DNA from: a virus
DNA length: 64,000 nucleotides
Reading direction: 5' to 3' (one strand)
IMG/VR virus record: IMGVR_UViG_3300018494_000126
In this document: piece by piece, positions 2,235 through 41,664 of the stretch
Layout of the letters: the number at the start of each line of letters is the position of its first letter
Numbering within the stretch: position 1 is the first letter of the stretch
Notes under the pieces: model-generated
Databases searched by the model: none
Told to the model about the DNA's origin: nothing
The model's input: the letters and a program-made list of their open reading frames with translations, nothing else
Program-made: the position numbers and the translations under genes

Positions 2235-2756
2235 ATGAAATATTATATTGCGGATACTCATTTCGGTCATGAAAACATTATACGTTTAAGCAATAGACCA
2301 TTTCAAACGGTTGAGGAAATGGATAATGTAATGATTGCAAAATGGAATGAAAAAATTACAGAAAATGATGATGTATATATTTTAGGGGATTTTTCTTATA
2401 AAGGAAAAGACCCTATTTTTTATTTGTCACAATTGAAGGGACGGAAATATTTAATTATTGGCAACCATGATACCAAATTATTAAAAAATCCAGACCATAG
2501 ACAATATTTTGAAGAAATAAATTCTATTTTAATGGTGGATGATGGAGGCACGCAAATCTGTTGTTGTCATTATCCAATGGTAGAATGGAACGGTTATTAT
2601 CGTAACGTGTTACATTTCTATGGTCATGTTCATAACACTTTTCATAATGCTACAACTCAATATGCAGCTCAGATGCCCAGAGCTTTTAATGTTGGAGCAG
2701 ATATAATAGGATTTACGCCCAGAACTTTAAAAGAAATATTGGAAGGGAGATATTAA
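2235..2756 (+). CDS. metallophosphoesterase (calcineurin-like)
   Basis: N-terminal DTHFGH, then GDFSYKG and GNHD metal-binding motifs typical of the calcineurin-like phosphoesterase fold. Confidence 0.75.
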   Translation: MKYYIADTHFGHENIIRLSNRPFQTVEEMDNVMIAKWNEKITENDDVYILGDFSYKGKDPIFYLSQLKGRKYLIIGNHDTKLLKNPDHRQYFEEINSILMVDDGGTQICCCHYPMVEWNGYYRNVLHFYGHVHNTFHNATTQYAAQMPRAFNVGADIIGFTPRTLKEILEGRY

Positions 2757-2911
2757 ATGAGTACAGAATTCATTTGTATAGCGTGCGGTATTTGTGCTTT
2801 ATGGCTAATAGTTTGGCTGTATGACGTATATGACAGACGTAAAAGTTAATGAATACGTTTGTTTTAATAAAAAAGTAAACCAATAATATTTGCTTAGAAA
2901 GGAGGATAAAT

Positions 2912-3196
2912 ATGAGAGCTTTTGATTTAGGACAGTTGTATGTTACACGAGGTATAGCCACAGTAATGGAAGAAGGTAATTCTGATTTTAAAAGAGATTT
3001 GTCACAGGCTTTAACACAATATAAAGCATGTGATTGGGGAATTACCTGTACAGATGACCAGCAGTTGAACAACGAAGCAGTCTTAAACGGAGATGATAGA
3101 ATATTAGCAGTTTATCCTACCTGTCGCGGTAATATTTGGATAATTACTGAATGGGACAGAAGTGTTACCACAATATTATTTCCTAATGAATATTAG
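2912..3196 (+). CDS. hypothetical protein
   Basis: 94-aa ORF with AGGAGGATAAATATG ribosome-binding site. Confidence 0.45.
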   Translation: MRAFDLGQLYVTRGIATVMEEGNSDFKRDLSQALTQYKACDWGITCTDDQQLNNEAVLNGDDRILAVYPTCRGNIWIITEWDRSVTTILFPNEY

Positions 3197-3211
3197 AAAA
3201 CGGGAGGATAA

Positions 3212-3724
3212 ATGACAGAACAGCAGAAAGAACTCGTTGTTAATCATCATAATTTAATTTATTTTGTGATTAACAATATGCATTTACCAGAAGAAGAATA
3301 TTATGATATTGTAGCCATTGCTTTGTGTGAAGCAGCAATTAAATATGATGATAGCAAAGGGAAATTTTCTACTTTTGCTGTAAACATGTGTCAGAATGTA
3401 GTTAAAAATCATATTAAGAGTATGTATGGTACAAAAAAACGAGGTGTTTCAGTTTTATTACCTACAGGTGGAGAAATTGATAACTCATCAGTTGTTAAAG
3501 GTAAACATGCTTCTGAATATGATTTTACATCCGATATTTGTGCACGAGAATTTTTAGATTACTTTGTTCAACACAAATTAACAGAACGCGAACAGAAAGT
3601 ATTGACCTATGTATTAAACAGTGTCCCGTATCGTACCATTGGAGAAAAAATGAATATTAGTACAGGCACTGTGGTAAATACGTTAAAATCTGTGCAACGG
3701 AAATATGTACGATGCTGTGCTTAA
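3212..3724 (+). CDS. sigma-70 family RNA polymerase sigma factor (phage-encoded)
   Basis: Region 2 hallmark GKFSTFA; C-terminal region-4-like HTH (YRTIGEKMNISTGTV). Confidence 0.8.
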   Translation: MTEQQKELVVNHHNLIYFVINNMHLPEEEYYDIVAIALCEAAIKYDDSKGKFSTFAVNMCQNVVKNHIKSMYGTKKRGVSVLLPTGGEIDNSSVVKGKHASEYDFTSDICAREFLDYFVQHKLTEREQKVLTYVLNSVPYRTIGEKMNISTGTVVNTLKSVQRKYVRCCA

Positions 3725-3735
3725 TCTAGAAAGGA

Positions 3736-4011
3736 GTGGTAAAGATGAATAATGTAAGACGAAAGGCGATAGATGGGGTAAAAAGGGCGCTTCAGCCGTT
3801 ATTAATAGAATTGTCTATTATTTTAAGTGAAGTTACCGATTTATTTACAGAGGAAGAAGAAGCATTAGAGAATATTCCTGAAAATTTACAGGACACGGAA
3901 AGATATGAACAAACAGAAAACGCAGTAGATTGTTTAGAGATAGTAATTGATACAATTAGTGAATTCTTAGACGCGGACTTAATTGATACTTTAACAGAAG
4001 CTCAAGGCTAA
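3736..4011 (+). CDS. hypothetical acidic protein
   Basis: 91 aa, strongly acidic C-terminal half (EEEEALENIPENLQDTE...). Confidence 0.45.
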   Translation: MVKMNNVRRKAIDGVKRALQPLLIELSIILSEVTDLFTEEEEALENIPENLQDTERYEQTENAVDCLEIVIDTISEFLDADLIDTLTEAQG

Positions 4012-4019
4012 TTAAGGAG

Positions 4020-4259
4020 GTGTTGACAATGAATAAAAAGTTTGTATATTATAGTTATAAAAATCAAGATGGGTTATTATTGTTTATTCCTCTATCTTTA
4101 ATGTGTTTATTATGTAAAGATGGAATTATTGGATTCATTCTTTGTTGGATTATATATGCTGGGTATTGCTGTTTTAATAATTATGAATTATCACAAGACC
4201 CTTATATACAAGAGATAAGAAAAATTGATGCACAGAACCAACAGAGAAAGGGGAAATAA
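4020..4259 (+). CDS. small membrane protein
   Basis: 79 aa with two hydrophobic segments. Confidence 0.4.
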   Translation: MLTMNKKFVYYSYKNQDGLLLFIPLSLMCLLCKDGIIGFILCWIIYAGYCCFNNYELSQDPYIQEIRKIDAQNQQRKGK

Positions 4260-4262
4260 CCT

Positions 4263-5300
4263 ATGAATGGTAGATTTGAAACTCAATTATGTTATCAGGA
4301 TAAAATTGATAAAAAATTAGAAAGTCTGCCTCAATATGTAAAAGATTATTGTTATTCTTTTTCTTATGGTGCTCAAATTAAAACTGCTCATAAATATATT
4401 GGAATAATTGAGAACTTTTATAAAAGTATAAAAGAAGATTCAACCACAGTGACACCAGAAGAAGCAGCACAGAATGTAGCACGTTATATGGTTGCTAAAA
4501 AGACCAAAACGGTTATACAAAATGGTGTTGCTAAAGTTACTCCCACATCAATTTTTTATCAACAGTTAATTTATACTGTATTAAAAAACTTTATGGGGTA
4601 TTTATACTCAAATAAGTTAATCGAAATTAATCCAATAACAGAAATTAAACGTCCAAAAGGAGAAGATAAGGTACAACGGCCTGAGATTACTCCTGATGAA
4701 TTGCAACAAATGTTGGGCGCTGTATTATTTGGGGCTGGTTCTACACGAGCTCGTAAAATTCAGAATAAATGGAAATCAAGAGATTTCTTGATTTTATTAT
4801 TATTTATTTTGACTGGTATGCGTCGTAGTGCGTTAAGCGAAATTAATGTAGAAGATATTAATTTGGAAACGGGAGAATTAACAGTTATTGATAAGGGGCG
4901 AAAAACCCATGTTTATCAAATCAGTTCCATTATGCAATATGTAAATGATTGGTTATATGATAGAGAAGAACTGTTGCGTGAATGGGGTGTTCAGCTGGAT
5001 GCGTTATTTATTTCTCGACAAAAAGCGCGATTATCAACAGATAGTATAGCAGAAATTGTTCATAAATACTCAGAAGCGGTTTTAGGCGAAGGGATTTCAC
5101 CGCATAAAATACGTTATGCATTTGTAACTAATATTATAAAGGAAACTGGAGATATAGAATTTGCACGACGAGCGGTAGGTCATTCTAATATTAGTACTAC
5201 CCAGCGTTATGTAGTTATGAATGATTCTGATGTAAAACAGCGTTCGGCCGATATCATTGTTAAACAAATTCATGATGGTTTTGTCATGGCTAAAGATTAA
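4263..5300 (+). CDS. tyrosine recombinase / integrase (XerC/D-like)
   Basis: Box I TGMRRSAL; box II HKIRYAFVT...GHSNISTTQRYV (R-H-R-Y catalytic signature). Confidence 0.85.
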   Translation: MNGRFETQLCYQDKIDKKLESLPQYVKDYCYSFSYGAQIKTAHKYIGIIENFYKSIKEDSTTVTPEEAAQNVARYMVAKKTKTVIQNGVAKVTPTSIFYQQLIYTVLKNFMGYLYSNKLIEINPITEIKRPKGEDKVQRPEITPDELQQMLGAVLFGAGSTRARKIQNKWKSRDFLILLLFILTGMRRSALSEINVEDINLETGELTVIDKGRKTHVYQISSIMQYVNDWLYDREELLREWGVQLDALFISRQKARLSTDSIAEIVHKYSEAVLGEGISPHKIRYAFVTNIIKETGDIEFARRAVGHSNISTTQRYVVMNDSDVKQRSADIIVKQIHDGFVMAKD

Positions 5301-5367
5301 AAAATATGCTACAATAACAACTAATAGGTAGACTTGAAGCAAGAAAACTAAAGAAGGGAGGAGTTTT

Positions 5368-6300
5368 ATGTACAACGCGGAACGGAAGCAATTATTTATA
5401 CAGTATTTAACTGATTATGATATTCATTATTCTATTAATGTTGTCCATTTTTTAGAAACATTGGAAGAGTTAGAAGTGCAATATGATAAAGATGTATGTT
5501 GTTTTACACAAGATGAAGTCAGAACTATTTATGAAATAGATTTATTAAAAAATAAAACATATGCTACATTGGTTGTTTATTTTTATTTGTTGCGTAAATA
5601 TGGTTTATGGTGTTTAGATATGGAATTTACCACACCAGACAGCGGTTTAATAACGATGCCATTTGCTACGCTTAAAGAAATAAAAGGCCCAGCAGATTAT
5701 ATTACACCAGAAGAATTAACAGAAGCTGCCACAACAGGGTTTCTAAATAAAATAGACCGATTTGTAGTACGCTGTATTTATGAAGGTTTCACTGTTCAAC
5801 AAATTGCTGAATTAACCAAAGATAGTTTACATATTGAAACTAAAGAATTGGTATTGGCAGATGGAACATGTTTAACTATTTCGGATGATTTAGTGGCGTT
5901 AACGCAGGAAGCAATTGCCGAAAAATATTTTCGCAGAGGCCCTACTAAAACAACTCCGCCGATGGATTTCTTATTAGAGGAAAATGAATTTATTGTTCGG
6001 TTTCCTATTACTATGTCTTACAATGAACAATTATTAGACCCAGAATTTAGACATACGAAAATCAAATGGAGGTTATATAATTACGCAAAGCAACAGAAAT
6101 TTGTTATTAAAACCATAGAATTAAAAGATAGTGGTATGATTTGGTCTTTACTGACAGAATCAGAGCGAATAAAGGTGTCTTTATCTCTAGAGAGTAGATA
6201 TAAACATCCTCAAATTCAAAGAATTTTAAATAGATATGGCAGAGGACATTGGAAACCATACCAAGTATTTCGTAAATTAAAAGAATATGACGTTGTATAG
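5368..6300 (+). CDS. hypothetical protein (no recombinase catalytic motifs)
   Basis: 310-aa ORF directly downstream of the recombinase; no RHRY residues. Confidence 0.5.
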   Translation: MYNAERKQLFIQYLTDYDIHYSINVVHFLETLEELEVQYDKDVCCFTQDEVRTIYEIDLLKNKTYATLVVYFYLLRKYGLWCLDMEFTTPDSGLITMPFATLKEIKGPADYITPEELTEAATTGFLNKIDRFVVRCIYEGFTVQQIAELTKDSLHIETKELVLADGTCLTISDDLVALTQEAIAEKYFRRGPTKTTPPMDFLLEENEFIVRFPITMSYNEQLLDPEFRHTKIKWRLYNYAKQQKFVIKTIELKDSGMIWSLLTESERIKVSLSLESRYKHPQIQRILNRYGRGHWKPYQVFRKLKEYDVV

Positions 6301-11507: not shown

Positions 11508-12089
11508 ATGGCGAACAAACGTAAGTGTGCCTTATGTGGCGAATATATAGAAGCTACGGATAATTTAATGCCGTATAAAACACGTTATGTGCACACTACG
11601 TGTTTTAACGCCAGCATGAAAGCCTTAGCATCTAATAAACAAGAACAATTAGCAGAAAAGGCAAAGTCAAAAAAACGCCAAACTGTTAAAGCACCAAAGG
11701 AAATTGCAAAACCTATAAGCGAAGAAGAATATAAAGCAAAACAAAAATTCTTTGATTATATGTCGAGCGTGTTAGAGGTGGAGCAATTAGGTGCAAAATT
11801 TTATACATTAAGTGCTAGGTATGTAGAGCAATACAATTCTTCTTGGGAAGAAATGTATAATATATTTTATTGGCATCTGGACATAATGCAAAACGAACCA
11901 GTAGGTGATTGTATAGGTCTATTTCCTTACATATTAGATGAGGGAAGACAATTCTATACAGCGCTCAAAACAATAGAAGAGCAAAATAGGGAAATACAAG
12001 TTAATAACTTTTATCACGAAAAAGTGATAAAAATTAACCCTCACAAGAAGAAAAATATTAAACAGATGAATATCGAAGATATAGTCTAG
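11508..12089 (+). CDS. zinc-finger protein (possible helicase loader or replication organiser)
   Basis: N-terminal CALCGEYIE...HTTCF; Lys-rich linker; immediately upstream of the DnaB-like gene. Confidence 0.45.
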   Translation: MANKRKCALCGEYIEATDNLMPYKTRYVHTTCFNASMKALASNKQEQLAEKAKSKKRQTVKAPKEIAKPISEEEYKAKQKFFDYMSSVLEVEQLGAKFYTLSARYVEQYNSSWEEMYNIFYWHLDIMQNEPVGDCIGLFPYILDEGRQFYTALKTIEEQNREIQVNNFYHEKVIKINPHKKKNIKQMNIEDIV

Positions 12090-16082: not shown

Positions 16083-16154
16083 TCCCCTTTATCCAAGCGG
16101 TTAAGGAACTCGGCTTTGACCCGAGGAGCGCTGGTTCGAATCCAGCAAGGGGAG
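16083..16154 (+). tRNA. tRNA-Gln (anticodon TTG)
   Basis: Manual fold: acceptor TCCCCTT/AAGGGGA, D-loop with GG, anticodon stem CTCGG/CCGAG, loop CTTTGAC, T-arm GCTGG-TTCGAAT-CCAGC, discriminator G. Confidence 0.8.
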
Positions 16155-19146: not shown

Positions 19147-21609
19147 ATGAGTTATTTTAGTATACACAACCACACAGACCGAGATAGTAATTTGCGTATA
19201 CGTGATTCAATTAACAAGGTATCAGATATTATCCAATATGCACATGATATAGGTTTAAAAGGAATTTGCCTAACAGGACATGAATCAGTCACTTCTAGCT
19301 TATCGGCAATAGAATATTTCTATAGCCATAAAGATAATCCAGAATGGGTAGATTTTAAAATAGGTTTGGGAAATGAAATCTATTTATGCACTCGTGATGT
19401 AACACCAGAAAATAAGAAAGGACAGAAATATCCGCACTTTATATTACTGGCTTTAGATTCTTTTGGACATAAGGGTATTAGAGAATTAAGTACACAATCA
19501 TGGTTAAACAATGCTTTTATGAATGTTATGATGCGTGTACCAACATATTATGACGAATTAGAAACTATGTTGGAGACATATAAAGGTCATATTATCGGTT
19601 CTTCTGCTTGCTTGGGAGGTATTTTACCTGCCAAAATATTGGAATTTGAAGCCACAAAAGACCCCGAATTATGGGGCGCATGTATTAGTTGGGTTGAATA
19701 TATGAATGAAATTTTTGGACAAGGTTATTTCTTTTTGGAATTACAACCTTCGCCTAAAATGGAACAGATTATAGTTAATCAATATCTAATTCGCTTATCT
19801 GAAATCACAAACACGCCTTATATTATCAGCACGGATTCCCATTACTTAAAGAAAGAAGATAGAAAATTCCACAAAATCTTTTTAGAAAGTCAGGACGGAG
19901 ATAGAGAAGTTGATGATTTTTATGAAACAACTTATGTGATGACTTCGGAAGAAATTCATGACTTTATGGATGCTTATATAGGGAAAGAAGCGGTACAAAG
20001 AGGTCTGGATAATACTTTATTGATTTATGATATGGTGCAAATATATGACCTGCGCAAACCGATGCGTATTCCGTATGTACCATTTAATTCATCTGAACCA
20101 GACCCATCTTTATTCAAAAAATATCAACCATTGATTCCTCATTTGGATTATTTCTTCCTTTCTGAATATGAGCCAGATAGACATTTGTGTAGAGAAATCG
20201 TGAATGAACTGGAAAGAAAGCCAAAAGAACTTTGCAACACAGAAACTTATGAGGCAATTGCAGAATGTTTGGATTCATTAATTATTGCTTCGGATAAGAT
20301 GAAAGTACGTTGGTCGGCCTATTTATTAGATGTTAAAGATATTGTAGAACTCTTATGGGAAGTATCATTAGTAGGATGTGGCCGAGGTTCTGGTGTAGGA
20401 TTTATTCTAAATTATATATTAAATATTACACAGATTAACCCTTTAAAAGAAAAAACGAAAACATTTCACTGGAGATTTTTAAATCCCGAACGTGCGTCGC
20501 CATTAGATATTGATGTAGATATTGAGGGTTCTAAACGAGAAGCGGTTATGCGAAAATTCCGTGACACTTATGGTGCAGATAGAATTAGTAAAGTTATGAC
20601 GTTATCTACCGAAAAACCACGTAGTGCTATTTTAACCAGTGCTAGAGGATTGGGTATAGATAATGATACGGCACAGTATATATCTTCATTAATTGTAGCA
20701 GATAGAGGACAATTACGTTCCTTTAAACAGATGTATTTTGGAGATGAAGATAACCGCCCTGTAATGGAATTTGTTCGTGAAATGGAAAGATACCCTGAAT
20801 TATGGGAGTGTGCACAGAAGTTTGAAGGTTTGGTAAATGGGGTAGGTTCTCATGCTGGGGGCATTATTTTAACAGATGAACCATTTACAGAAGTAGCAGC
20901 ACAGATGAAAACCAATTCAGGAGATATTATTACTCAATTTGATTTACATGAATGTGAAAAATTATCATTAATTAAATTCGACTGTCTGTCTGTAGAAGCA
21001 CTCGACAAGATTCATGCTTGTATGAATTTACTATTAGAGGATGGTGTTATTGAGTGGCAAGGAACTCTCAAAGATACTTATGAAAAGTATTTAGGTATAT
21101 ATACTTTAGAACGTGATGCAGAAGAAATGTGGAAATTACTGTGGGAACATAAAGTATTAAGCTTTTTCCAGATGGAGAAGGCTTCGGGGATTCAAGCCAT
21201 TTCGTTATCAAAACCACATTCAGTAGATGATTTAGCAGCTTTAAACTCAGTTATGAGACTTATGGCACAAGAAAAGGGTGGGGAAGCACCGCTTGAGAAG
21301 TATGCTAGATTTAAAAATGATATTAATTTATGGTATCAGGAAATGTCTAGTATGGGACTTACAGAGGAAGAACAAGATATATTAAAGGATATTTTAGGTA
21401 TTTCCTATGGTATTTGTGAAGCGCAGGAATACTTATTTCTGTTAGTTATGCATCCTAAGATTGGTGGTTTTTCATTAGCATGGGCAGACAAGTTGAGAAA
21501 ATCTGTAGCGAAGAAGTCTCCAAAAGATTTTGAAATATTACAGCAGGAATTTTTACAAAACGCAAAAGAAAAACAATTATCAAATAAATTAATTCGTTAT
21601 GTGTGGTTT
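19147..21609 (+). CDS. dnaE: DNA polymerase III alpha (DnaE-type), exon 1
   Basis: N-terminal PHP domain (HNHTDRDS...); last residues align to E. coli DnaE ...KQRSVF...IFDLVEKF just upstream of GYGFNKSH; exon end approximate. Confidence 0.8.
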
Positions 21610-21933
21610 GTATTAATTTTCATGCAACGTGGGTAAACAAACCTGCTCACGTAAAATTCGGTGAACGTATGCAAAAACGGTGTGTAACATTTTTGTTATG
21701 CTAACGGTGAAAGCCTAAGTCGTAAGATAAGGTAATACCGTGCCAAGCCTTATACATAAGGAAGGTGTAACGACTATTACGTACATCTGAGATTAGCACA
21801 GATGGAAGTGCCGAATAGAGTATTTTACTCTAAAGATATAGTCTAATCCCTATAGAAATACCGAGAAATCGGGGGTATAAATGATGGATTTAATCGTTCT
21901 CATTGTCTTGCTTACAGTTTATTGGGATTGCAG
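21610..21933 (+). mobile_element. group I intron in dnaE (no ORF)
   Basis: Untranslatable ~320-nt gap inside a conserved DnaE motif. Contains the group I S-element-like AAGATATAGTC preceded by GACTA, and a 5' motif (GTAAAATTCGGTGAAC) shared with the nrdD intron. Boundaries approximate: U before 5' site, G at 21933. Confidence 0.6.
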
Positions 21934-23310
21934 GAACTGAATTTATGTTATAAATATGGTTCAATCTATTGGTCTGCGGCCAATTTGGTTGTAGATTCTG
22001 GGTCATATAATGAAGATGCAAACGATGGAACTAACTATGGAAAAATGTCTACGGCTATTGCTTCAATTAAACAGAGTGGTACAGAAGTAGCTTTACCACT
22101 TATTAATGAAGCGGATTTTGGTTTTAAAGTGGATAAACAAAATAATCGTATCTTATTCAGTCTTAAAGCAATCAATGGAATCGGAACAGAAGCAGTACAA
22201 ACAATTCTAGAGCACCGACCATATAATTCATTTCAAGATTTCTGTGACAAACTTATCGTCACCAAATTACTCACAAATGCACAAATGATTAAGTTAATCA
22301 AAGGCGGTAGTTTTACCGAACTACACAATACAGACCGTACTAAAACTATGCGGTTATATTTAGAAAATTATGTGTTTAAACCATGTGATAATCTCACCAT
22401 GTCTCAAATGGGTAAAATGGTTGAAATGAAAATGATTCCTGATGAGTTTGACATTATTATACGTATTCTGAACTTTAAAGATTATGTTTTACATCCAGAT
22501 GGGTTAGATAGATTATATGTAAACCCAGATAAAAAAGTTCCGAAGTGCGGTTATCATGACAGATATTTTCTATTAGATAGCAATTCTCAATCATTTTTCG
22601 TGGCTAATTTCTCCGAAGATGCAGTAATTGAAGTGAAGAATTCGTATTATGTTATCTCTGAAAAGAACTTCTTGAAAGAAGTCGAAACCAAATTAAAAAC
22701 GTTTAGAGATTGGATGAGTAAAGAAGAAACACTAAACTTATACAATCAAAAACTATTTAATGAATTATGGGAGAAACACGCTTCTGGTACAGTACCTCAT
22801 TGGAATATGGAAGCATTAAGCTATTATGATGCGGAACATGAGTTAGACGGGGTAGATGAAAAGCATTATGGAATTGTCAATTACTTTGATTTACCAGAAG
22901 AACCAGAACCTTATGAGTGGTACACCCGTCGTATTAACGGAGAACCACGAGCGTTTCCTAAATATAAAATTAGCCGTTTGGCTGGAACAGTATTAGCGAA
23001 TGATAATAATCATCATTCATTTACTTTATTGACTAGATATGGAGTAGTAACAGTAAAAACAAATAAGGGAGCTTATGCTTATTATAACAAAACCATATCT
23101 CAGGTATCAGAAGAGAATGGTAAAAAGAAAAGATTGGAAGAAAGTTGGTTAAAACGAGGAACGCTTTTATTATGTCATGGTATGAGAATGGGAGACCAAT
23201 TCTTCTTAAAAGTGTATAACGATTCGATTTTTAATCACACCATTAACAAAATTGTAGAAGTTACGGATGAAAAGGAATTAATTGTACAAGCAGAGCGACT
23301 TCAAATCTAG
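21934..23310 (+). CDS. dnaE: DNA polymerase III alpha (DnaE-type), exon 2
   Basis: ...SIYWSAANLVVD... aligns to GYGFNKSHSAAYALV; (HhH)2 / OB-fold-like C-terminal region; same reading frame modulo 3 as exon 1. Confidence 0.75.
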   Translation, partial: ELNLCYKYGSIYWSAANLVVDSGSYNEDANDGTNYGKMSTAIASIKQSGTEVALPLINEADFGFKVDKQNNRILFSLKAINGIGTEAVQTILEHRPYNSFQDFCDKLIVTKLLTNAQMIKLIKGGSFTELHNTDRTKTMRLYLENYVFKPCDNLTMSQMGKMVEMKMIPDEFDIIIRILNFKDYVLHPDGLDRLYVNPDKKVPKCGYHDRYFLLDSNSQSFFVANFSEDAVIEVKNSYYVISEKNFLKEVETKLKTFRDWMSKEETLNLYNQKLFNELWEKHASGTVPHWNMEALSYYDAEHELDGVDEKHYGIVNYFDLPEEPEPYEWYTRRINGEPRAFPKYKISRLAGTVLANDNNHHSFTLLTRYGVVTVKTNKGAYAYYNKTISQVSEENGKKKRLEESWLKRGTLLLCHGMRMGDQFFLKVYNDSIFNHTINKIVEVTDEKELIVQAERLQI

Positions 23311-26840: not shown

Positions 26841-28043
26841 ATGAGGATTATTAAAAAAGATGGCACATTAGAAGATTATAATGAACAAAAAATAATTAAT
26901 GCTTGTAATAAAGCTGCTAGACGAGCAATGGTAGAATTAAATGCTAATGATTATCAGTTGATTTGTAACGCCGTCTGGGAAAAACTCGTTGAAAATGATT
27001 TAGAAGAAACTGAAATTTATGAAATGCATAATATCGTTGAAGCCGTATTGGAAGAATTATATCCAATAGTGGGGAAAATGTATAAAGAATATAGAAATTA
27101 TAAAAAAGACTTTGTTCATATGATGGATAAAGTATACGCCAGAAGTCAAGCAATTAGATACATTGGTGATAAGAGTAATGCTAATACTGATTCTGCTTTG
27201 GTGGCAACAAAGAGAAGTTTAATTTATAACGAACTGAGCAGTGAATTATATAAGAAGTTTTTCTTAACACTTGATGAAAAGCAAGCAATGAAAGATGGGT
27301 ACATCTATATCCATGATAGGAGTGCTAGACTTGATTCCTTTAATTGCTGTTTGATGCGTGTAGGCCATATTATGCATAACGGTTTTGAAATGGGGAACGT
27401 TTGGTATAACGAGCCTAATTCACTTGATACTGCATTCGATGTTATGGGAGATATTATCCTTTCAACAGCTGCACAGCAATACGGAGGGTTTACTGTACCA
27501 GAAGTTGATAAGATTTTAGCACCTTATGCAGAGAAGTCTTATAGAAAATATATTGAAGAATATAGAAAAGTTGAAAATGATGTATTAAGTCAAGTGTCTT
27601 GGAATGGTCGAGTTAAAGACGAAGGAGCTATAAAATATGCTCTTGATAAAGTCAGAAGAGACTTTGAACAAGGTTGGCAAGGCATTGAATATAAGTTAAA
27701 TACAGTTGGTTCTTCTAGGGGCGATTACCCATTCGTTACCATGACTATAGGATTAGCAACAGATATATTTGGCAAAATGGCCGCTATTACTTTACTCCAA
27801 GTACATAGTGAGGGCCAAGGTAAGAAAGGATTTAAGCGTCCTGTTTTATTCCCTAAGATTGTATTCTTATATGATAAAGAACTTCACGGAGATGGTTCTG
27901 AACAGTATCCAAATGCAGATGTATTTAATGCAGGAATTGATTGTAGTAGTAAAACCATGTATCCTGATTGGTTATCTTTAACTGGTAATGGATATGTACC
28001 TGAAATGTATAAGAAATATAAAAGAGTGATTAGTCCAATGGGT
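26841..28043 (+). CDS. nrdD: anaerobic ribonucleoside-triphosphate reductase NrdD, exon 1
   Basis: N-terminal ATP-cone (MRIIKKDGTLEDYNEQKIINA), class III RNR core, ends ...YKRVISPMG. Confidence 0.8.
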
Positions 28044-28943
28044 TAATATGATAGCTCATGTAAAACTCGGTGAACTTATATATATAAGGTGTCAATTCAA
28101 CGAATAGTAACCATAGGAAATGATGGCTAATGAATTGGCTAACAGGGGAAGTCATTATTATGATAATCCTGTGCTAATATTCAACGTATTCACTTTTAAA
28201 GAAGGTGAATTTTATATAGAAACAATAATTATAAATAAAGAAATTCAAGGTTTTGAGAGATATCGAATCAACATTAACGGTGTGATTTATGATACTAAAC
28301 GAAACAAAGAAATTGGTCAGTGGATAGATACCGTTGGGTATTACCAATGTGTTTTAAGAGATTCAAATGGTAAGAAATGTTATAAACGTGTACATAGGTT
28401 GGTCGCCAATACGTTTATTCCTAATCCAAATAATCTACCACAAGTCAATCATAAAGATGGAAATAAGTTAAATAATAATATAGATAACTTAGAGTGGTGT
28501 ACAAATAGTGATAACACCCAACATGGTTATGATAACAAATTATATAAATATAAGTCAAGATGTCATGCGATAAACGTCTATTATAAGAAAAATGGTAAAT
28601 ATTTTAAAACTTATAAATCTATAAGAAGTATGTGTGAAGATTTACATATTAATAGAAAGACAGTAACCATGATATTAAAAGATGAAAAATTAACTAATAA
28701 TTATGATTATTTATTTGAATACGTTGAAGAAAGTCAAGAGACTATCGAAAGCATAGCATAAGAGAAAAACTTATGCGAAGAAGCGAGTAGAGTACATATA
28801 AGGTGAAAGTCCTTATGTGGAAGTGCCGAGCATCTATTATTTGGTAATAGAATAATAGATGAAGATATAGTCCAAACTGCGAAAGCAGTTAGTGTCGTGC
28901 ATTCCTTTCTCCATGGTATGAAAGAGGTGGAATGCATCCTGCG
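28044..28943 (+). mobile_element. group I intron in nrdD carrying an HNH homing endonuclease ORF
   Basis: 5' end CATGTAAAACTCGGTGAACTTAT is homologous to the dnaE intron 5' end; 3' part has GGAAGTGCCGAG and the S-like AAGATATAGTCC; interrupts an otherwise continuous NrdD; boundaries approximate. Confidence 0.6.
28120..28761 (+). CDS. HNH homing endonuclease (intron-encoded)
   Basis: VHRLVANTF...NHKDGNKLNNNIDNLEWCT..NTQHG HNH_3-type motif plus NUMOD-like regions; lies inside the nrdD intron. Confidence 0.8.
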   Translation: MMANELANRGSHYYDNPVLIFNVFTFKEGEFYIETIIINKEIQGFERYRININGVIYDTKRNKEIGQWIDTVGYYQCVLRDSNGKKCYKRVHRLVANTFIPNPNNLPQVNHKDGNKLNNNIDNLEWCTNSDNTQHGYDNKLYKYKSRCHAINVYYKKNGKYFKTYKSIRSMCEDLHINRKTVTMILKDEKLTNNYDYLFEYVEESQETIESIA

Positions 28944-29852
28944 GATGAGGATGACAAGCCAGTATTTGAAGGAAGATGTAATTTAGGTGTTGTATCGCTT
29001 AATTTACCGATGATTTTAGCAAAATCAAGACAAGAATCAAAAGACTTTTTTGAAGTATTGGAACATTATCTTGAACTTATCAGAGGATTACATAAGCGTA
29101 CTTATGATTATATTGGAGAACTTCGAGCGAGTGTAAATCCTATTGCTTTCTGTGAGGGTGGTTTATATGGTGGTAATTTAAAACCAGAAGAGAAGATTAA
29201 GTCAATTCTTCCTCCTATGACAATTAGTTATGGTATTACTGCTCTAAACGAATTACAGAGATTATATAATGGTAACTCTATTAGAGAAGATGGACAATTT
29301 GCTTTAGAAGTAATGCAGTATATTCAGAACTATGTAGATAGAATTAAAGAAGAAGATAATATTCTATATGCAATATATGGAACGCCTGCTGAGAGCCTTT
29401 GTGGTTTACAAGTAGAACAGTTCCGTAAAATGTATGGGATTATCGAAAATGTGTCAGATAAGCCTTATGTAAGTAATAGTTTTCACTGTCATGTATCTGA
29501 AGAAATGTCACCTATTGAAAAACAAGATAAAGAAGAAAGATTTTGGGATTATTTCAATGGTGGAAAAATTCAGTATGTCAGATATAACTTAGGTTATAAC
29601 AAGGAAGCAATTAAAACTCTCGTGCTTAGAGCTATGGATAAAGGGTTTTATGAGGGGGTAAATCTTGCAATGTGTTATTGTGAAGATTGTGGCTATCAGC
29701 AAGTGGAAATGGATGTCTGCCCTAAATGTGGAAGTTCCATGATTACGAAAATTGACCGTATGAATGGCTATTTAGGATTCACTAGAGTACATGGTGATAC
29801 ACGTTATAACGAAGCAAAGAATGCGGAAATCGCGGATAGAGTGAGTATGTAA
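28944..29852 (+). CDS. nrdD: anaerobic ribonucleotide reductase NrdD, exon 2
   Basis: GRCNLGVVSLNLP motif, Zn-ribbon CEDCG...CPKCG, C-terminal RMNGYLG glycyl-radical-like motif; exon start approximate. Confidence 0.75.
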   Translation, partial: DEDDKPVFEGRCNLGVVSLNLPMILAKSRQESKDFFEVLEHYLELIRGLHKRTYDYIGELRASVNPIAFCEGGLYGGNLKPEEKIKSILPPMTISYGITALNELQRLYNGNSIREDGQFALEVMQYIQNYVDRIKEEDNILYAIYGTPAESLCGLQVEQFRKMYGIIENVSDKPYVSNSFHCHVSEEMSPIEKQDKEERFWDYFNGGKIQYVRYNLGYNKEAIKTLVLRAMDKGFYEGVNLAMCYCEDCGYQQVEMDVCPKCGSSMITKIDRMNGYLGFTRVHGDTRYNEAKNAEIADRVSM

Positions 29853-41591: not shown

Positions 41592-41664
41592 AGCTGATGA
41601 CGGGAATCGAACCCGTGACCTCTTCACTACCAATGAAGTGCGCTACCGACTGTGCCACATCAGC
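41592..41664 (-). tRNA. tRNA-Thr (anticodon GGT)
   Basis: Reverse-complement folds as acceptor GCTGATG/CATCAGC, D-loop AGTCGGTA, anticodon stem CTTCA/TGAAG, loop TTGGTAG, T-arm ACGGG-TTCGATT-CCCGT; one A-C mismatch in D-stem. Confidence 0.75.

Follow-up and report, generated by a model that had tools for sequence, protein, structure and literature searches.

A Small Group I Intron Very Probably Splits the DnaE-Type Polymerase Gene of a Phage

Introduction

In a stretch of 64,000 nt from the IMG/VR virus record IMGVR_UViG_3300018494_000126 (henceforth the window, meaning the whole stretch analyzed), two open reading frames (ORFs) that resemble successive parts of the polymerase DnaE lie one behind the other on the plus strand in a shared frame, 19147-21636 (829 aa) and 21922-23310 (462 aa). 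The locus raises the question of whether a replicative polymerase is encoded here by one gene or by two and, if by one, what separates its parts. We conclude, with a probability of about 0.9, that 19147-23310 is a single gene for a DnaE-type (Pol III alpha, YorL-like) phage replicative polymerase that is split by a group I intron of 249 nt that has no ORF.

One Polymerase Gene, Probably in Two Exons

The ORF 19147-21636 matches the Pfam domain models PHP (PF02811), DNA_pol3_alpha (PF07733), and DNA_pol3_finger (PF17657), and HHH_6 (PF14579) is matched in the frame that runs into the ORF 21922-23310. With PHP, Pol III alpha core, finger, and HhH in this order and a motif of the GYGFNKSH type, the product has the hallmarks of a family C polymerase. 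The gene is laid out as follows.

19147-21634, plus strand: dnaE exon 1, 829 codons and the first base (T) of a Tyr codon; PHP, Pol III alpha core, and finger
21635-21883, plus strand: group I intron, 249 nt, no ORF, no P2; P1, P3, P3.1, P3.2, P4, P5, P6, P7, P7.2, P3', P8, P7', and P9
21884-23310, plus strand: dnaE exon 2, opening with the AT that completes the Tyr codon and continuing with GFNRSHCLAYSL...; HhH, C-terminal region, and stop codon

Exon 1 aligns without a break with uninterrupted homologs as far as ...QRG. The homologs from Geobacillus phage GR1 and Leuconostoc phage phiLM33_01 cross the gap directly (...QFGY-SFSLPH...), 25 relatives from IMG/VR likewise align straight over the intron position, and 25 of the 27 contiguous homologs have the G-Y pair. 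We sought the closest full-length homologs in a collection of 5.8 billion proteins; the closest uninterrupted one (P0001) is 76% identical and has a junction stretch (...IFMQRGYGFNRSHCLAYSLLGLQELNLCYKYG) identical to the one predicted, with one residue different in a second homolog (P0002). Alignment of the spliced protein with residues 726-923 of Thermus aquaticus Pol III alpha (PDB 2HPI) is likewise unbroken, with YGFNKSHAAAYSLL (...YGFNKSH...) matched.

Homolog alignment and orthologous introns place the intron boundaries. We asked jointly for a U before the 5' splice site, a G before the 3' splice site, and restoration of the G-Y pair, and the sole pair of sites that satisfies all three lies after U21634 and after the terminal G21883; therefore, the intron comprises 21635-21883 and is 249 nt long. 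G21883 and the exon bases AU that follow it are invariant in five orthologous introns at the dnaE site. The Tyr codon of the G-Y-G-F-N motif is thereby split T|AT, the exons join as GGG-T|AT-GGA, and the predicted spliced junction is ...CAACGTGGGT joined to ATGGATTTAAT. Removal of the intron restores an uninterrupted, conserved reading frame with a predicted product of 1304 aa that reads ...IFMQRG-Y-GFNRSHCLAYSLLGLQELNLCYKYG..., with the GYGFNRSH motif, the most conserved one of the gene, intact (...IFMQRG-Y-GFNRSHCLAYS...). No plus-strand ORF lies within 21635-21883, the longest that overlaps it being 33 aa and beginning in exon 1. The insert is not an intein by its features, as the exon frame meets stops inside it and the Pfam scan found no Hint domain.

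The two ORFs might instead encode separate polymerase subunits that assemble without RNA splicing, given that gene callers annotate two proteins in related phages and that the TTG at 21922 could in principle start translation. We consider this split-gene explanation extremely improbable: the subunits would lack GFNRSHCLAYSL (21886-21921), 12 conserved codons that lie 5' of any start codon in the second ORF, a break at 21922 would fall inside the active-site finger motif, and a complete covarying ribozyme sits exactly between the halves. Because these 12 codons lie upstream of 21922, the TTG is, as judged from the alignments, an artefact of ORF listing, and exon 2 begins at 21884. The initial annotation had joined the two ORFs across the finger motif in agreeing frames and had placed an ORF-less spacer of about 320 nt inside GYGFN(K/R)SH, with the second half starting at 21922. 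The alignments, including that of the spliced product with 2HPI and the junction shared with P0001, bear out the contiguity and the position, and the lack of an ORF holds as well; the length and the start had to be revised to 249 nt and 21884.

A megablast search of 19147-23310 against the INPHARED phages gave zero matches, so that by this search the phage is without a close sequenced relative there. The best cultured-phage matches come from phages of Geobacillus, Leuconostoc, Enterococcus, and Bacillus.

Structure and Covariation of the Intron RNA

We scanned the whole window with Rfam at gathering thresholds, and of the three matches two are tRNAs and one is Intron_gpI (RF00028), at 21643-21865 on the plus strand (62.5 bits with a gathering score of 50, E value 1.8e-13, model positions 1-253). 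The thermodynamic fold is more stable than that of shuffled sequences (z = -3.1). Paired (P) and joining (J) regions were assigned as follows.

21628-21651, plus strand: P1, exon bases CGUGGGU (21628-21634) with guide GCUCACG (21645-21651); in the minimum free energy and centroid folds
21657-21663, plus strand: P3 5' strand UUCGGUG, paired with UGCCGAA at 21809-21815
21666-21701, plus strand: P3.1 (21666-21679, GCAA loop) and P3.2 (21682-21701), hairpins between P3 and J3/4, names provisional
21704-21766, plus strand: P4-P5-P6 domain, from the Rfam alignment and the fold, with covariation in P4 and P6
21704-21709 with 21736-21741, plus strand: P4
21713-21716 with 21730-21733, plus strand: P5, plus a GUAA-capped extension
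21743-21765, plus strand: P6 and P6a
21772-21776, plus strand: P7 5' strand GACUA, paired with UAGUC at 21839-21843; guanosine-binding helix, forms a pseudoknot with P3, equals the Rfam consensus
21784-21804, plus strand: P7.2-type hairpin CAUCUG...CAGAUG between P7 and P3'
21809-21815, plus strand: P3 3' strand UGCCGAA, directly upstream of P8 as expected for P3'
21817-21831, plus strand: P8, a minimal hairpin of 15 nt (AGAGUA-UUU-UACUCU), where orthologs hold an endonuclease gene
21839-21843, plus strand: P7 3' strand UAGUC, within the AAGATATAGTC element at 21833-21843 (J8/7-P7')
21848-21883, plus strand: P9 region; P9 (21848-21850 with 21873-21875), P9a (21861-21864 with 21869-21872, GAAA loop), and tail GUAUAAAUG

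P1 carries the U21634.G21645 wobble pair at the 5' splice site and is followed by four A's, P3, the two hairpins, J3/4 (UAA), and P4. The family of introns to which this one belongs (related loci are given L numbers) is recognized by a P3 that lies directly upstream of P3.1 and P3.2, and the window copy additionally lacks P2. P3.1 is already a named optional pairing of group I introns (PMC3873408), and the layout is therefore a variant rather than a new class. Of the P7.1/P7.2 hairpins of the IA2 type the window intron has one, and other family members appear to have two.

Compensatory changes back the P3-P9 core with its P3/P7 pseudoknot in two sets of relatives. Among five dnaE introns at the identical site, 62 pairs covering P1, P3, P3.1, P3.2, P4-P7, P7.2, and P9 are 95.4% paired, versus 36-40% with slid partners, and 28 pairs show compensatory change. 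In this set such changes affect 2/7 pairs of P1 and 4/6 of the P7.2-type hairpin (in both of which all cells pair), 4/7 of P3, 2/5 and 6/8 of P3.1 and P3.2, and 4/4 of P9a; P3 shows further ones in introns of Enterocloster phages. Across ten IMG/VR family members the six best-aligned helices are 96.9% paired, versus 28-45% with slid partners, with 14 compensatory pairs; P3.1 and P3.2 contribute 4/5 and 4/7, the Y:R covariation in P3 splits five versus five, and L066 has a double compensatory change in P7 (GAGCA/UGCUC). In P1 the Gly codon changes synonymously from GGG to GGC together with a change of the guide from GCUCAC to GGUCAC, and this covariation of exon and guide points to selection for splicing. 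The initial annotation's assignment to group I, which quoted GACTA (21772-21776) and AAGATATAGTC as its elements and named a covariance model as the check, is thus upheld by RF00028 and by covariation, the two elements being P7 and J8/7-P7'.

We rejected two helices proposed by Rfam itself. In its P2 one strand is the guide sequence, which differs from one target site to the next whereas the supposed partner is invariant, and its P3 contains mismatches and overlaps a hairpin that shows covariation.

Several points weigh against a functional group I intron at this locus. The Rfam alignment misassigns P2 and P3, so that its score rests mainly on P4-P9, and two orthologs used in the covariation analysis are weak in Rfam at E value ≤ 1 (L123, 19.3 bits; L125, 31.4 bits). 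Inspection of P10 (3' exon with guide region) shows a weak helix with mismatches (GG/CC and UU/AA). P2 and P7.1 are absent and P5 is short, because of which a protein helper may be needed for efficient folding. Splicing of the dnaE intron is itself read from sequence.

Some of these points would fit a decayed relic that no longer splices and leaves dnaE a pseudogene or a source of the 829-aa fragment only: the endonuclease gene, P2, and P7.1 have been lost, P5 is reduced, and P10 is weak. However, every core helix is intact and the window keeps pairing where orthologs vary, P1 (GGG-U with GCUCAC) suits the exon codon of this particular genome, the reading frames of both exons are open throughout and conserved (76% identity to full-length homologs), and the window has no evident second replicative polymerase. 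Known functional group I introns include ones of about 200-250 nt. We therefore hold a relic to be very unlikely and retain the reading of a splicing intron.

RF00028 is poorly sensitive for this family: at the gathering score it detected none of nine related loci, and only the window's dnaE copy passes among the ten loci tested. A BLASTN search of the intron's 5' 73 nt against phages gave no match at E value ≤ 1; so short a query carries little information.

Alleles at the Same Nucleotide of dnaE

Truncated homologs that are 77-81% identical to exon 1 end in ...IFMQRG and then enter the same intron sequence. At this nucleotide we find the following alleles.

L124: 1204 nt; 305-aa NUMOD4/HNH_3/I-HmuI-like ORF inside P8 (926 nt), stem base AGAGU...ACUCU as in the window
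L119: 825 nt; 195-aa HNH ORF in P8 (591 nt); DnaE only 36% identical
L123: 345 nt; no ORF, 70 nt of leftover P8
L125 and L126: 314 nt; no ORF, 86 nt of leftover P8
Window: 249 nt; no ORF, 15-nt P8 on a stem base like that of L124
L127 (syntenic 163-kb contig): no intron; uninterrupted GGT|TAT

The intron-free site in L127 reads ATGCAGCGTGGT/TATGGATTTAAT, and NUMOD4/HNH_3 proteins are encoded in P8 by L124, L119, and L031 (a cultured phage locus described below). The dnaE intron of the window has no ORF of its own and encodes no homing endonuclease; the better evidence for past homing is the occurrence of endonuclease-carrying, decayed, minimal, and intron-free alleles at the identical nucleotide, a series in line with the homing-cycle stages set out in a review (PMC3984707).

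L127 and L123 are on contigs of about 163-164 kb with the gene order DnaB, PD-(D/E)XK nuclease, DnaE, and RecD2-like helicase, and with a YorF-like protein in addition. The comparison suggests that the window derives from a phage of about 160 kb that belongs to a clade absent from INPHARED at the DNA level.

Cultured Phages and Neighboring Insertion Points

The Enterocloster phages CB473P2 and CB473P3 carry an unannotated intron at the same dnaE nucleotide as the window (GGC-T|AT), and their DnaE pieces are annotated as hypothetical proteins. In PT94 and PG-2021_68, Sextaecvirus phages of Staphylococcus, a related and likewise unannotated intron sits between a Pro and a His codon, 17 nt downstream of the insertion point in the window.

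CB473P3: L028 (OP172757.1), 3299-3890; insert of 592 nt
CB473P2: L031 (OP172756.1), 2644-4031; insert of 1388 nt with a coding sequence annotated as I-HmuI
PT94: L029 (PP212903.1), 3057-4000; related intron of about 940 nt with an HNH ORF
PG-2021_68: L030 (MZ417342.1), 3068-4009; related intron of about 940 nt with an HNH ORF

The split DnaE of cultured phages has been annotated as separate hypothetical proteins because Rfam at the gathering score mostly misses the family. A further DnaE homolog from IMG/VR (L027) diverges after F-S-I (from 6076 onwards) and beyond this point has a J3/4-P4 motif of group I type and a GIY-YIG-like ORF (MRDKFIYIYTNKINGHQYVG...); the 3' end of this insertion falls outside the locus examined, and its site is only partly mapped.

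The insertion points therefore fall at G|Y in codon phase 1 (the window, four metagenomic relatives, L119, CB473P2, and CB473P3), at P|H (PT94 and PG-2021_68), and after F-S-I (L027), that is, at least two and probably three points within about 17 nt, and several stages of the homing cycle are kept at the G|Y site. We think it fairly probable that group I introns have a previously undescribed homing hotspot in DnaE-type polymerases of phages, at the finger motif G-Y-(G/S)-F-x-x-x-H.

Elsewhere in these genes, dnaE of the Enterocloster phages has a second insertion near residue 450 with a coding sequence annotated as I-HmuI, and dnaE of L027 has two more large gaps, near 2884-4144 and 4353-5588, which suggest further insertions.

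The nrdD Intron and the Question of a Pair

A second intron of the same family interrupts nrdD of the window. Because a large ORF insert defeats the model, Rfam found nothing on the nrdD spacer even at E value ≤ 1, and we mapped this intron by hand and by continuity of the Pfam NRDD profile, whose positions 2-262 fall in exon 1 and whose positions 264-560 fall in exon 2.

26841-28043, plus strand: nrdD exon 1
28044-28892, plus strand: nrdD group I intron, 849 nt, same family; HNH_3/NUMOD ORF listed at 28120-28761
28893-29852, plus strand: nrdD exon 2; junction SPMG|CRAFL

Its P1 is AUGGGU/GCUCAU, its P3 pairs CUCGGUG with UGCCGAG, and the P3, P4, P7, and J8/7 motifs are present; the HNH_3/NUMOD ORF runs through P4-P6 and ends over J6/7-P7. 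An ORF-less intron occupies the same nrdD site in L082.

The initial annotation had noted that the two introns are alike at their 5' ends, and had taken them as a pair that indicates active homing. The likeness is real: CACGTAAAATTCGGTGAACGTAT of the dnaE intron recurs at 28057-28079 with three mismatches, none of 100 shuffles gave two matches, and the similarity extends to 31/39 bases. This likeness is also what would be expected if the nrdD intron had given rise to the dnaE intron by transposing within this genome. Reverse splicing is one conceivable route; it needs only 4-6 complementary bases (PMC3984707), and the 5' exons of both indeed end in UGGGU with guides GCUCAC and GCUCAU. However, the shared block (GUAAAAYUCGGUGAAC, a hairpin, and GGUGU) is found in dozens of IMG/VR introns at many insertion sites, and its 16-mer GTAAAAYTCGGTGAAC occurs in 91 IMG/VR contigs, of which more than half show the full intron context and the rest look like chance occurrences. 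From this distribution, the shared 5' block is a family signature and not a sign of a recent pair.

When four core blocks are compared, identity of the dnaE intron is 74% with the L119 dnaE-site intron versus 40% with the nrdD intron of its own genome, a ranking based on block-wise local comparison (an earlier ranking with cheap gaps favored long sequences). Orthologous introns occupy the identical dnaE nucleotide even where DnaE is only 36% identical, introns at the nrdD site elsewhere (L082 and others) resemble the window's nrdD copy, and the loop that holds the endonuclease gene differs, being P8 at the dnaE site (L124, L119, and L031) and the P6 region in the nrdD intron of the window. A transposition within this genome therefore has little to recommend it, and a recently spread pair is hardly to be expected. 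Because core identity is 74% versus 40%, the endonuclease loops differ, and the 5' block is family-wide, the two introns are best regarded as separate residents of their own sites; the argument for active homing of a pair is weakened by the same observations and by the lack of an endonuclease in the dnaE copy.

Motif scans of the window found two members of the family and no third. A third AAGATATAGTC at 12076-12086 was rejected as an intron; it falls at the end of a 193-aa coding ORF, and the number of matches is that expected by chance.

Two further features of these introns were observed. A AGGAAAUG loop is conserved in the second hairpin after P3 in many members (window 28109-28122; L041, L059, L065, and L082). 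In the window's nrdD intron, the endonuclease ORF as listed has its first ATG at the AUG of this loop, yet the motif is retained in ORF-less members; a structural contact and a ribosome-binding site are candidate roles only. In addition, both introns of the window have a UAA stop at the 5' splice site (21634-21636 and 28044-28046), and the orthologous dnaE introns of L123, L124, and L125 have no immediate stop and read through 12-31 codons.

Proposed Splicing and History

The splicing chemistry proposed here follows what is established for group I introns. Exon bases CGUGGGU of the pre-mRNA would pair with the guide sequence of the intron to form P1, a free guanosine bound in P7 would attack after U21634, the freed exon end would then attack after the terminal G21883, and the exons would be ligated as GGG-T|AT-GGA to encode the 1304-aa polymerase. 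An unspliced RNA would be translated only as far as the UAA (21634-21636), which spans the 5' splice site, and would yield the 829-aa fragment without part of the fingers, the HhH, and the C-terminus.

With the family match, the helices, the junction, and the distribution as observed above, we infer a history of gain and loss: most likely, the intron descends from an ancestor that carried an I-HmuI-like HNH gene in P8, entered this conserved position by homing, and later lost the endonuclease gene. Because it encodes no endonuclease, the present dnaE intron is unable to home by itself. It may persist by blocking the recognition site of related endonucleases.

Implications

The two dnaE ORFs should be joined as one 1304-aa polymerase, and the same correction applies to CB473P2, CB473P3, PT94, and PG-2021_68, in which the pieces are unannotated or hypothetical. 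The alleles that share this one nucleotide form a compact natural series in which an endonuclease gene's gain and loss can be studied, and the 249-nt intron is a small natural ribozyme with helices backed by covariation. Most relatives escape the standard Rfam model, which also puts P2 and P3 of this family in the wrong place. The current understanding of group I introns is unchanged: the dnaE intron is a well-supported but ordinary case of a known selfish element, and the additions are modest, namely the proposed DnaE-motif hotspot, the allele series, and the low sensitivity of RF00028. Apart from these loci, the window has tRNA genes at 16083-16154 (plus strand) and 41592-41664 (minus strand), with Rfam scores of 63 and 65.5 bits.

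Comparison with Known Systems

Group I introns in phage genes for DNA polymerase, ribonucleotide reductase, and terminase are textbook cases (PMC3984707), and the literature searched yielded no account of such an intron in a DnaE-type polymerase of a phage. The closest parallels are the Bacillus phages SPO1 and Bastille, whose polymerase genes have group I introns that carry the HNH endonucleases I-HmuI and I-BasI (PMC3984707). As in those phages, a conserved motif of a replicative polymerase is interrupted by a group I intron that has P7.x helices, and orthologs of the window intron carry NUMOD4/HNH_3/I-HmuI-like endonucleases; the P4-P7 core of the Bastille intron is about 79% similar to that of the window's dnaE intron over 66 nt. 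Unlike in SPO1 and Bastille, the host gene belongs to family C (DnaE/Pol III alpha, YorL-like) rather than family A, and the window copy has neither an endonuclease gene nor P2 and has two hairpins between P3 and P4.

The td, nrdB, and nrdD (sunY) introns of phage T4 provide a precedent for endonuclease-free or defective copies alongside mobile ones (PMC3984707), and the window, like T4, also has an nrdD intron; the host gene of the dnaE intron and its peripheral architecture are different from those of the T4 introns. In the gut jumbo phages named "Jug," group I introns split terL, nrdD, and DNA polymerase genes, and gut jumbo phages carry many such introns, with splicing confirmed by metatranscriptomes (PMC12880540). 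The similarity lies in the fragmentation of essential gut-phage genes by short group I introns together with HNH and other endonucleases. In contrast, the Jug phages are about 360-400 kb with predicted Bacteroides/Phocaeicola hosts, whereas the closest relatives of the window are on contigs of about 160 kb, and the text consulted describes no DnaE-motif site for the Jug phages (PMC12880540).

Finally, the DnaE inteins of cyanobacteria and Thiomargarita (PMC4853749, PMC4760082) are likewise selfish splicing elements in a conserved part of dnaE. Unlike the window insert, which is an RNA ribozyme with stops in the exon frame, these inteins are translated in frame and spliced at the protein level.

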